A stretch of DNA of 64,000 bases. It comes from a virus. Lineage: Duplodnaviria > Heunggongvirae > Uroviricota > Caudoviricetes. Below the pieces are notes generated by a model. It had not been told where the DNA came from and searched no databases. It saw only the letters and a list, made by a program, of their open reading frames with translations. Below, in pieces: positions 48,944-52,054 of this stretch. Numbering within the stretch: position 1 is the stretch's first letter; every line of letters starts with the position of its first letter. The translations under genes were made by a program, and so were the position numbers. The stretch lies in the IMG/VR virus record IMGVR_UViG_2541047857_000009; one strand, 5' to 3'.

Positions 48944-49092
48944 CGAGATTAAAGTGCATTAGTTCAGATGCAAATTGACATTTTGTGGCACAGGGTAGAG
49001 CTAGCGTGGTTGTCCGCTTTGTGCCAATAGCGGACATTGCTGGCTCATGGTATGTTAGTTTAAGGAGGCAGGTTATGCCCTGTATTTCGCTG

Positions 49093-49101
49093 TGGTATAA
49101 T
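49093..49101 (+). promoter_or_regulatory. Extended -10 promoter element for the AT-rich cassette
   Basis: TGGTATAAT at 49093-49101; second TGGTATGTT near 49042. Confidence 0.5.
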
Positions 49102-49134
49102 AGTTGCGCAATTGATACAAGGGAGCGTTACATC

Positions 49135-50097
49135 GTGAAAATTGTTTTCGAGGTTAATGGAAAGAAAGTTCCACTAAAATCTTTAAAATACATAAGCAAA
49201 AAAGATCAACTCGAAGTAATGAAAAACTGGTTCTTTGAAAACTTTGAAGATCCGGCAAATGCTTGTCCGTATGAAAGTAGAGAAGGTGGCTATGCTTACA
49301 TATATGGCGGGCCGTATGATGCGAGCGAAGAACTACAATCCATCTTCGGTCAATATGTTAAATCTGAGTATATTGAGGAATTAGTAGATGAATTACAAAC
49401 ACAATGTTTTGACTGGTCTGGAAACTCAAATAATATAGATGATTGGTACGATGATGATATCTACGACGCTGTAACGTCTTCCGGTAATCCGTATTTAAAA
49501 TTCATTGATAATATCGATAAAATAAAAAAACTTGCAAAAGATAAAACTGAACAACAGCAAAAAAACCACTTGCTTAGTTTGCTCTACACGAATGTTATTA
49601 CAGCTTTGGAAACGCTTTATGTTGAGCTATTCATTAATTCTATAGAGAAAGATGATGTCTACATAGCCAATTGTATAGAAAAAGGTAAGACTGAATTTAA
49701 AGTAAGCAAAGATATTGCTGCGTTGCCTTTCAAGGGTGAACCCATCGAGAAAATTAGGGGAGAGCTAATCAGGTCAATCAAGGAACACTTGATCAGTGCA
49801 AGCTGGCATAGCACTAAAAAGGTAATCGACCGCTATGAAGCTACATTCGATATAAAAGTACAAAAAGACTGTCCGATAGAAGCTATTGAATTGGCAACCC
49901 TCAATCGAAATCACTTAGTGCATCGTGGTGGAAAGGATAAAGAAGGGAACCTCGTAGTGATTACAGACCAGGATCTTGAAACGCTGATTGAAAATGCATC
50001 GAACCTGGCAATTATGCTCTACAACAGTTTAAATGTAGCAACGAATAAAACCACCATTTTGCAACCAGATGACAAACCGTTCATTCATGAATTTTAA
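49135..50097 (+). CDS. Candidate defence protein A: unknown N-terminal domain plus C-terminal HEPN-like RNxxxH motif
   Basis: AT-rich ORF; GTG 49135 with AAGGGAG SD (alt ATG 49075 with AAGGAGG); C-terminal LATLNRNHLVHRGG. Confidence 0.6.
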   Translation: MKIVFEVNGKKVPLKSLKYISKKDQLEVMKNWFFENFEDPANACPYESREGGYAYIYGGPYDASEELQSIFGQYVKSEYIEELVDELQTQCFDWSGNSNNIDDWYDDDIYDAVTSSGNPYLKFIDNIDKIKKLAKDKTEQQQKNHLLSLLYTNVITALETLYVELFINSIEKDDVYIANCIEKGKTEFKVSKDIAALPFKGEPIEKIRGELIRSIKEHLISASWHSTKKVIDRYEATFDIKVQKDCPIEAIELATLNRNHLVHRGGKDKEGNLVVITDQDLETLIENASNLAIMLYNSLNVATNKTTILQPDDKPFIHEF

Positions 50098-50112: not shown

Positions 50113-51114
50113 ATGGATATTCGCACACGAAAGACAAAATTTTTAGAGTCGTTAGATTCAACTGAAGTGATACGCAAAGCAGTAAGTCTCGCTATAGATT
50201 GCATTATTGATAATCATAATAGTAATGAAGATACCCCCTTAGTTATTACCAGCTATGATGATCTCTGTAGAATCCAGGTGCTAAATTATGTACAGGAGTT
50301 TTGCGAAGCTGCATTCCCTGATATGGATGAATATTACTTTAGTCCTAACATACTTCGCATCAACGGCAAGACTAGTGAAGAAGCTTGTATTAACTTAATT
50401 AAACTCTTAAGAAGTACAAAAGGCATGCTATTCTGGTCCGATGCCCCATCGTGGTTCGCTAGCCTCCCCGACGGATTATTCCATGTTGTTAACATTGATC
50501 AAAAAATCGTTACTCGCGGCCTTAATAAGAAAAACTCTAAGCCGACAATAATCAATAAAGATTACAGTGTAGATACACTACTATCAGAGCTATTTTTGAA
50601 TGGCGCACACATGGAGCAACCCAACGTACACAACGTTTCTGAGGGAAACATGAAGTTCTATGATGAATGCCATGCTGGATTAATCAGACCAATACCCGCT
50701 CCAATAGGCGCGTCATACGATGAAGAGATCACAATTAATTCTCCAGATTGGCAAAAGCTCGCGTGTGTAGCTTTACGCCGCTATCAGTCGAAGGAATGTC
50801 ATGACGGAATGCAATGGGATACAACCGATCATGGTTGGACTGATGTAATCGCGTATCCATTCGTCGAAGAAATACAATCAATGGATAATAGTGGTTATCG
50901 ACAATGTTTAGTTGGGCTGGTCACAATAAACAATTCAAATGCAAATTCTCCGTACCTATCTACCGTTTGGATACATCCATTTTATCGCAGGAGAGGGTTA
51001 TTAAGTAAGTTATGGCCAAAATTACAAGAGTTATATGGAAGTAACTTCGAAATTGAGCGACCTAATGAAAATATGAAAGCATTTCTGAAAAGTGCGAAAC
51101 ACGCAGATTACTAA
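50113..51114 (+). CDS. Candidate defence protein B: unknown N-terminal domain plus C-terminal GNAT-like region
   Basis: AT-rich ORF 15 nt after protein A; C-terminal LVGLVTI...VWIHPFYRRRGLLSKLW resembles GNAT motif A. Confidence 0.6.
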   Translation: MDIRTRKTKFLESLDSTEVIRKAVSLAIDCIIDNHNSNEDTPLVITSYDDLCRIQVLNYVQEFCEAAFPDMDEYYFSPNILRINGKTSEEACINLIKLLRSTKGMLFWSDAPSWFASLPDGLFHVVNIDQKIVTRGLNKKNSKPTIINKDYSVDTLLSELFLNGAHMEQPNVHNVSEGNMKFYDECHAGLIRPIPAPIGASYDEEITINSPDWQKLACVALRRYQSKECHDGMQWDTTDHGWTDVIAYPFVEEIQSMDNSGYRQCLVGLVTINNSNANSPYLSTVWIHPFYRRRGLLSKLWPKLQELYGSNFEIERPNENMKAFLKSAKHADY

Positions 51115-51225: not shown

Positions 51226-51516
51226 ATGTCTGCAGATCGCTCAAAGCGGACTAGAAGGTTAGCTTGCGTCGGACTTGGCGTATTTAAAGAAGTGCTGGTG
51301 GTGACTGGTTGTTGTGTTCCATTTCTACAGAACAAAATCACAGAAACTATACCCAATAGTTATATTGAATCAATGATGAGACAGCCTCATATTTATCAGA
51401 ACTGGTGTACGTCCAATACAGGAGGTTGTCGTGCTGGTTCTCAAATGTGCGCTAGCTATTGCGGCTGTAATGGCAATTTATTGTCTTGCTGTTGTTCTTA
51501 TGGATCGCCTTTCTGA
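51226..51516 (+). CDS. Cys-rich small protein (hypothetical)
   Basis: C-terminal CTSNTGGCRAGSQMCASYCGCNGNLLSCCCSYGSPF; AT-rich; start uncertain. Confidence 0.35.
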   Translation: MSADRSKRTRRLACVGLGVFKEVLVVTGCCVPFLQNKITETIPNSYIESMMRQPHIYQNWCTSNTGGCRAGSQMCASYCGCNGNLLSCCCSYGSPF

Positions 51517-51731
51517 TTGATTTTATATTGGCGAGGTGACGGGAGTTAAGTAGAATTGCTGCGGGTGCTTGAGGCTATCTGCCTCAGGCATGAACACCAA
51601 AGGCAGATAGAGAAAAGCCCCAGTTAATATTACGCGTCCTGCAAGACGCTTAACATTAATCTGAGGCTCAATCTATGAACGGCAAATCTAGGTTAGCCTC
51701 TTACGTGCCGAAAGGCAAGGAGAAGCAGGCT

Positions 51732-51887
51732 ATGAAGCAGCAAAAGGCGATGTTAATCGCCCTGATCGTCATCTGTTTAACCGTCATAGTGACGGCACTG
51801 GTAACGAGGAAAGACCTCTGCGAGGTACGAATCCGAACCGGCCAGACGGAGGTCGCTGTCTTCACAGTTTACGAACCTGAGGAGTAA
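51732..51887 (+). CDS. hokD: Hok-family type I toxin (HokD-like)
   Basis: MKQQKAMLIALIVICLTVIVTALVTRKDLCEVRIRTGQTEVAVFT matches recalled HokD almost exactly. Confidence 0.85.
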   Translation: MKQQKAMLIALIVICLTVIVTALVTRKDLCEVRIRTGQTEVAVFTVYEPEE

Positions 51888-52054
51888 GAGACCCGGCGAG
51901 GGAGAAATCCCTCGCCACCTCTGATGTGTCAGGCATCCTCAACGCACCCGCACGTAACCCGCTTCGGCGGGTTTTGTTTTTTCCTGGCATTCTGGTTTAC
52001 AATTCGCACGCCAGCCTGAACAACTGGCACCTGCTGCGCCAGCAGAGACAACCG

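Follow-up and report, generated by a model that had tools for sequence, protein, structure and literature searches.

This locus raises the question of whether a Cys-rich open reading frame (ORF) lying upstream of hok encodes a Cys-rich toxin, a bacteriocin-like peptide, or a metal-binding peptide, as the original prediction had proposed, or whether the ORF is spurious, the alternative that it had allowed. The ORF lies at 51226–51516 of the window, by which we mean the whole 64-kb (64,000 nucleotides) stretch of DNA analyzed; the window matches E. coli UTI89, along with further strains of the ST95 type, at 100% identity. We consider it likely that the Cys-rich ORF is not a gene but the +2-frame reading of a conserved 29-codon gene, hereafter ORF-B, predicted to encode a single-pass hydrophobic protein. 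The original prediction overlooked the real signal, a conserved 29-aa hydrophobic ORF that overlaps the Cys-rich tail in another frame. The features first needed are the following.

51226–51516 (+): Cys-rich 96-aa ORF, judged to be a non-coding frame shadow
51237–51375 (+): left part of the conserved block, found in some lineages only
51376–51430 (+): conserved core of the block, a putative 5′ leader including the ribosome-binding site, found in 26/26 unique homologs and on pCP301
51420–51425 (+): Shine-Dalgarno (SD) sequence AGGAGG, 5 nt ahead of the GTG at 51431
51431–51520 (+): ORF-B, predicted gene for a small hydrophobic protein; GTG start, TGA stop at 51518–51520, 29 aa

Composition and conservation of the Cys-rich frame

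The Cys-rich ORF runs from an ATG at 51226 to a TGA at 51514–51516 (96 codons), and the AT-rich composition and C-terminal string ascribed to it were confirmed (GC 42.6%, compared with 50.8% for the window). The 11 Cys residues that had been assigned to its C-terminal 40 residues are, however, the tally for all 96 residues, with 8 in the last 40 (or 36). ORFs of at least 96 aa with an ATG arose by chance at 0.155 per shuffle of the local 2.7 kb, or a few per 64-kb window, so the length of the ORF is by itself unremarkable. An older GenBank record carries it as UTI89_C1473 (ABE06953.1), and older gene-finder calls of this frame in many genomes vary from 47 to 104 aa, showing merely that the frame is open. 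Current RefSeq carries no annotation of the Cys-rich ORF.

To leave variation in the block unbiased, homologs were retrieved by anchoring on the hok leader and not on the block itself. This yielded 133 upstream regions which, with the window, gave 89 unique sequences, and the block was present in 26 of them. The Cys pattern was poorly kept among these 26 unique homologs: the TGT codon at 51490–51492 is replaced by TAT in 17, the TGC at 51460–51462 by TAC in 7, and the TGC at 51448–51450 by CGC in 5. Only 2 Cys are left in the last 23 residues on the Shigella plasmid pCP301 and 1 in L142, a more distant homolog. Conservation of the Cys spacing, a check set beforehand, was thus absent, with the Cys count in the last 23 residues falling from 7 down to 1.

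The candidate start codons fared no better. The ATG at 51226 is common to the nearest relatives only, and no SD sequence was found before the candidate starts of this frame. A 47-aa form starting at an internal Met had also been suggested; the Met-Met pair is indeed present at 51373–51378, but these two codons are CTG-ACG in most homologs. The frame is interrupted by a TAA at 51427–51429 in one homolog (L008) and carries frame-breaking indels upstream of about 51375, and its last 23 codons are open in all block-type homologs. The pN/pS ratio of the Cys frame was 0.34–0.52 against close homologs and 1.0–3.4 against distant ones, and 11 of 43 substitution events were synonymous (expected 30%, p = 0.78).

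Searches of Pfam, NCBIfam, PHROGs, and PADLOC returned nothing meaningful for either the Cys frame or ORF-B. No maturation, export, or immunity genes were found among the neighbors of the Cys-rich ORF (GNAT-like, HEPN-like, hok, a rem-like ORF, DUF968, RusA, and Q). Likeness to microcins, bacteriocins, and metallothionein-like peptides is confined to the high Cys content of the off-frame translation; unlike those peptides, the Cys frame has an unconserved Cys pattern, no genes for a leader, maturation, export, or immunity, and no sign of selection.

The Cys content itself is accounted for by the overlapping frame. Six Cys of the last 23 residues (6/6) correspond to NNT|GCN or NNT|GTN codon junctions of an Ala/Val-rich frame, that of ORF-B, and the +2 frame of a related 34-aa subfamily described below is likewise Cys-rich. 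An Ala/Val-rich transmembrane (TM) helix that uses T-ending codons thus gives rise to the Cys richness as a side effect. Of the readings offered by the original prediction, only that of a spurious ORF survives; the proposed toxin, bacteriocin-like, or metal-binding peptide finds no conserved Cys, starts, or frame, and its pN/pS rises to 1.0–3.4 at a distance.

ORF-B and its family

The predicted ORF-B product is a 29-aa peptide (MLVLKCALAIAAVMAIYCLAVVLMDRLSD) with a GRAVY of 1.81 and one predicted TM helix; the best 19-residue Kyte-Doolittle window is 2.70 in both the 29-aa and the 34-aa subfamilies. A TM-length segment followed by an M-D/E-R-L-S/G-D/N tail is conserved across the family, and the peptide stops 5 residues past the TM segment. 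The translation signals are also kept. The SD core is GGAGG in 22 of the 26 unique homologs and GGAGA in the other 4; it is GGAGG on pCP301 and TGGAGA in L142, and the start codon is GTG in all prophage copies and ATG on Shigella pCP301 (pINV). The frame was unbroken in every homolog examined; since ORF-B has only 29 codons, this intactness carries limited weight. Indels within its body are in-frame (one additional codon in L142, one fewer in P0116), and an 11-nt deletion at the very end of ORF-B in L009 results only in a longer tail.

Replacements in ORF-B were almost all swaps among A, V, T, I, L, F, and M. Against the distant homologs (pCP301, L016, and L142), its pN/pS ratio was 0.32–0.48 (about 0.34), and the peptide is kept while DNA identity drops to about 65–73%. 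Of 43 events, 19 were synonymous in this frame (expected 30%, p = 0.038). In the 34-aa subfamily, 10/16 events were synonymous in the corresponding frame (p = 0.007), compared with 1/16 in the +2 frame. These substitution patterns indicate that the ORF-B peptide is under purifying selection. Close homologs fail to separate the two frames because Ala↔Val transitions, which fall at codon position 2 of ORF-B, are synonymous in the Cys frame, and this inseparability is the main weakness of the local codon signal. The weak codon signal among close homologs (p = 0.038) speaks against ORF-B as a gene, as does the lack of PGAP annotation among the matches listed.

We then examined the relatives of ORF-B. 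A 34-aa ORF (MSDDISLAMEGALAV[VI]AVVGVYCLVVFLMDRLGN), with the SD sequence AAAGGAGGG and an ATG start, occupies the same slot in many other hok loci. Its N terminus is 5 codons longer than that of ORF-B, and the two peptides share 48–55% identity (DNA, ~65%), with L8, A9, V13, Y17, and L19 invariant between the subfamilies (alignment A2). For the homolog search, a 46-aa in-frame translation around ORF-B served as the query. In an exhaustive HMMER search of 1.84 billion (1.84e9) representative proteins, a profile of the 29–30-aa members recovered the 34-aa subfamily (E = 3.7e-4, whole library). The yield was only 16 clusters, with the motif C-terminal in all of them; the family is therefore small, hok-syntenic, and, in these searches, seemingly limited to Escherichia/Shigella. 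Diverged members from this search (P0136 and P0137) read MLAALKGFVAILAVVAIYCLVVVLMDRLSD and MLIIKGVLAIVIVVAIYCLVVTLWERLSD, and the former is the immediate upstream neighbor of a HOK_GEF gene, again within a lambdoid prophage. No PDB sequence matched the family profile. Other members gave weak NCBIfam matches to ATP-synthase subunit c and KdpF (E > 0.01), far below the cut-offs.

One 34-aa member is annotated: ECs_5710 (YP_009502606.1), which is XECs145, in prophage Sp6 of E. coli O157:H7 Sakai. It resembles ORF-B in using the same reading frame, with 55% identity over the aligned peptide (EGALAVIAVVGVYCLVVFLMDRLGN versus KCALAIAAVMAIYCLAVVLMDRLSD), in having one TM helix and a strong SD sequence, and in lying directly before the hok/mok promoter of a lambdoid prophage. 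It differs in being 34 aa long, with an acidic stretch of 5 extra residues at the N terminus and ATG as the start codon, in having a second small TM ORF (M[IN]WPEAF...CRWG) ahead of it, and in having a palindrome between it and the hok promoter. RefSeq annotation and Ribo-seq support are features of ECs_5710, not of the GTG-start variant in the window.

For XECs145 grown in LB, a transcriptome RPKM of 79, a RIBOseq RPKM of 346, an RCV of 4.35, and a coverage of 0.99 have been published (Huecker et al. 2017, PMC5597208). The same study gave an RCV of 1.14 in BHI and predicted an inner-membrane protein with one TM helix (PMC5597208, S2 and S8 tables). Thus, a member of the ORF-B family, the Sakai paralog, is transcribed and translated in the lysogen during ordinary growth. 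Databases already list members of the family as hypothetical proteins lacking names, and the window variant is a new, largely unannotated member; a string search of main-text literature returned no mention of ORF-B-family peptides or of UTI89_C1473.

Together, the conserved ribosome-binding site, start, and frame, the purifying selection, the homology to ECs_5710/XECs145, and the synteny with hok form the comparative evidence by which the status of ORF-B as a gene is supported.

The hok/sok locus and the variable cargo slot

The following features flank ORF-B.

48985–50097 (+): cargo gene, 370 aa, with a weak HEPN/RES N-terminal-domain (RES-NTD1) match
50113–51114 (+): cargo gene, 333 aa, with a weak GNAT match
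51528–51556 (+): hok promoter-like site TTGGCG-17-TAGAAT, kept in all hok loci retrieved
51563–51737 (+): hok mRNA leader and sok target region (Rfam RF01794, 113.3 bits, E = 1.7e-26)
51675–51887 (+): mok/hok reading frame (RefSeq hokD, 51732–51887)
51956–51973: hok terminator

The position upstream of hok given in the original prediction was borne out, and the hok/sok locus is intact. Its promoter-like site begins 8 nt past the ORF-B stop, and Hok is encoded 212 nt downstream of ORF-B. A weak Rfam isrK match (27.8 bits against a gathering score of 50, E = 0.0017) at 51896–51977 (+) spans the hok 3′ end and terminator and is probably a mere terminator-like resemblance.

When complete E. coli genomes were searched (5,426), 1,933 held the 295-nt block upstream of hok; among the matches listed, neither a CDS nor any other feature was annotated beneath it (RefSeq/PGAP). 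Roughly one in three of these genomes therefore probably carries ORF-B as a conserved gene for a small membrane protein, unannotated among the RefSeq matches listed. In the window region, RefSeq leaves the interval from the GNAT-like gene to hokD without a CDS. The core of the block (about 51376–51520) was found in 26/26 homologs and is continuous into the hok promoter. Its left part carries indels of 14 + 1 nt in one lineage and 1 + 6 nt in another, and probably represents either a leader that is not translated or DNA at the junction that follows the variable cargo slot.

The surrounding prophage is lambdoid, with the order YdaT-like gene, replication genes, DUF977 gene, two cargo genes, block, hokD, rem-like ORF, DUF968, RusA, and Q. 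The two cargo genes, between the DUF977 gene and the block, are AT-rich (GC ~32–45%) and co-oriented, and neither had a PADLOC match. In other genomes, the same slot holds a restriction enzyme, SIR2, NUDIX + HAD, methyltransferases, or QueH, which suggests that it is a defense/moron hotspot. Since the genes to the left of the block differ by genome, the block marks the right edge of the cargo slot; ORF-B can accordingly be used as a marker of the right boundary of a variable cargo/defense slot in lambdoid prophages, tightly linked to hok/sok.

In the window, ORF-B sits immediately ahead of the hok promoter and in the same orientation, an arrangement shared by 6 of 7 sampled E. coli genomes (L005–L010), L142, and Sakai Sp6. 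The same pre-hok slot can hold ORF-A (M[TN]WPEAF..VGIAMAVALVVYSICRWG, ending ICRWG), a 27-aa TM ORF that is unrelated to ORF-B and has the SD sequence AGGAGG. Among the 89 unique hok-upstream sequences, ORF-B was found in 37, ORF-A in 29, both in 11, and neither in 34. ORF-A lies about 41 nt before the hok leader in L017, L032, L092, and L130, and the 11 sequences with both carry ORF-A and then ORF-B in tandem (e.g., L016, L033, and L143, with ORF-A at 2345–2428 in L143). A tblastn search found no relic of ORF-A in the window.

Several loci showed rearrangements around ORF-B. In loci with both ORFs (L143, Sakai Sp6, 2420–2620; L016; L033; L085), a direct repeat, GGGTAAAAACG(G)TT(C/T)GC, brackets ORF-B, and a perfect 22-nt palindrome, CGATATGGGAATTCCCATATCG, follows ORF-B before the hok promoter; the bracketed ORF-B looks as if it had been inserted as a cassette. 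In three IMG/VR sequences (L014, L021, and L060), ORF-B is reduced to its final ~23 nt (ATGGATCACCTTTCTGATTGA, reading MDHLSD*), located ~23–45 nt before the hok leader and fused to unrelated upstream DNA. These fusions show that recombination junctions can fall inside ORF-B. In E. coli SW071619 (L004, 1501–1800), an intact ORF-B block lacks hok downstream: the homology ends a few nt past the ORF-B stop and is followed by a DUF1971 gene on the opposite strand. ORF-B and hok are therefore separable modules.

On the Shigella flexneri virulence plasmid pCP301 (NC_004851; L140, 2001–2230), the sequence after an intact ATG-start ORF-B comprises the hok promoter and ~60 nt from the start of the hok leader; the hok gene has been lost. 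This pCP301-type relic was found on 124 Shigella virulence plasmids. It lies upstream of icsP/sopA, an outer-membrane protease gene whose CDS begins at 2423 of L140, a few hundred nt downstream of ORF-B, and icsP reportedly has two promoters.

Possible role of ORF-B and competing accounts

The product of ORF-B is most likely a single-pass inner-membrane small protein. The promoter search found none convincing for ORF-B, which would therefore be translated from rightward transcripts entering from the cargo or early-right region. A weak candidate, ATCACA-18-TATATT at 51337–51366, was not established as its promoter; the −10 element is TGTATT in most homologs. The peptide would insert into the inner membrane with one TM helix (residues ~6–24) and a short charged tail (M-D/E-R-L-S/G-D/N). 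Against this, the two subfamilies (29 aa and 34 aa) differ in charge distribution such that opposite topologies are predicted. It would probably act by binding a membrane partner and not by bulk membrane damage. Partner binding is favored by the conservation of Y17, L19, a near-invariant C18, and the LMDRL tail and by the heavy ribosome occupancy of the Sakai homolog in normal growth.

MgtS, AcrZ, MgrB, PmrR, and KdpF are inner-membrane proteins of small size that work by binding to larger proteins of the membrane, and they serve here as a functional analogy only. As far as its predicted properties go, ORF-B resembles them in its length of ~30 aa, single TM helix, and charged tail, and in having been missed by automated annotation. 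It has no sequence similarity to them, and they are encoded by core genes whereas ORF-B is prophage-borne. The finding of ORF-B does not overturn current understanding.

The position of ORF-B invites comparison with its neighbor. Like Hok/Gef (PF01848), ORF-B specifies a small hydrophobic peptide with a single predicted TM segment in the same prophage module, and the two are adjacent. Unlike Hok/Gef, it has no Pfam match at E ≤ 10, and the hhalign probability is 1.2%, a value obtained with a Hok alignment assembled partly by hand. It lacks the ~25-residue periplasmic domain of Hok with its conserved Cys, as well as a mok-like overlapping frame and an fbi/tac leader, shows no sign of a sok-like RNA, and has an unsequestered SD sequence. 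That ORF-B is a remnant or duplication of hok was rejected on the hhalign value (1.2%) and the lack of a PF01848 match.

We regard it as unlikely that the hok/sok modules of prophages include ORF-B as a third functional component. As such, it might modulate the action or insertion of Hok, as a brake or a helper, or might couple expression of the cargo/defense slot to hok. If true, this would explain why ORF-A and ORF-B repeatedly occupy the slot just before the hok promoter.

It is likewise improbable that ORF-B is a type I toxin, that is, a membrane-depolarizing peptide repressed by an antisense RNA in tandem with hok/sok. A small hydrophobic peptide (29 aa, GRAVY 1.81) adjoining a known type I system fits such a toxin, and a minus-strand site resembling a sigma-70 promoter (51549→51520) is a candidate source of RNA antisense to the ORF-B 3′ end. 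However, the −10 element of this site is not conserved: it is TGAAAT, with the key A2 lost, in 16 of the 26 homologs, and the site is missing from the 34-aa subfamily. The minus strand has no terminator, Rfam match, or stable structure (z = 0.0). The SD sequence of ORF-B is strong and unsequestered (MFE z = −1.16); the alifold consensus of its leader is weak and places the SD sequence in a marginal 3-bp helix. In addition, the RCV of the Sakai homolog in LB (4.35) is unlike that of a tightly repressed toxin, and the peptide is unrelated to Hok.

That neither frame is coding, so that the block would be conserved non-coding DNA or RNA (a mosaic junction, a hok regulatory region, or an sRNA), is quite improbable. 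The absence of an annotated CDS under the match among the RefSeq genomes listed, block boundaries that fall at recombination junctions, and the weak codon signal among close homologs are consistent with such a block. Several observations argue against it: the peptide is conserved at about 65–73% DNA identity with a pN/pS of about 0.34, the SD sequence and start are conserved through a GTG→ATG change, and indels are in-frame in the ORF body and frame-breaking in the left part. Moreover, among the 89 unique upstream sequences, which share the hok promoter and leader, 52 lack the block, and hok therefore does not require it. An sRNA or structured RNA found no support and is unlikely: the block has no Rfam family, its structure does not exceed that of shuffles on either strand (z = −1.16, plus; 0.0, minus), and the alifold consensus is weak. 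Ribo-seq also supports the Sakai paralog as a translated gene.

Very unlikely, in turn, is a role of ORF-B in cis as an upstream ORF that tunes read-through into the hok promoter, with the peptide unimportant. The ORF-B stop does lie 8 nt before the hok −35 element with no terminator between them. Against this stand the purifying selection on the peptide sequence, the spacing from stop to leader (42 nt here compared with 76 nt and an extra palindrome in the 34-aa subfamily), and the persistence of ORF-B without hok (L004) or with a truncated hok (pINV).

Least credible of all is that the Cys-rich ORF, in its 96-aa form or in the 47-aa form from the internal Met, encodes a genuine Cys-rich peptide (a toxin, bacteriocin-like, or metal-binding), perhaps in overlap with ORF-B: the ORF exists, has been called by older gene finders, and keeps its last 23 codons open with a low close-homolog pN/pS, but its Cys sites are replaced, both Met starts are lost or unshared and lack an SD sequence, the frame is broken in homologs, it has no family match or accessory genes nearby, the distant pN/pS and synonymous counts show no constraint, and codon junctions of ORF-B explain its Cys content.

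The preferred reading, in which the Cys-rich ORF is probably the shadow of ORF-B, points to a general pitfall. When Ala/Val-rich TM segments are encoded with T-ending codons, their +2 frame appears as a Cys-rich peptide, and composition flags for "Cys-rich peptides" therefore need to be checked against the other frames. In some records, the wrong frame, that of the Cys-rich ORF, has been deposited as a hypothetical protein.
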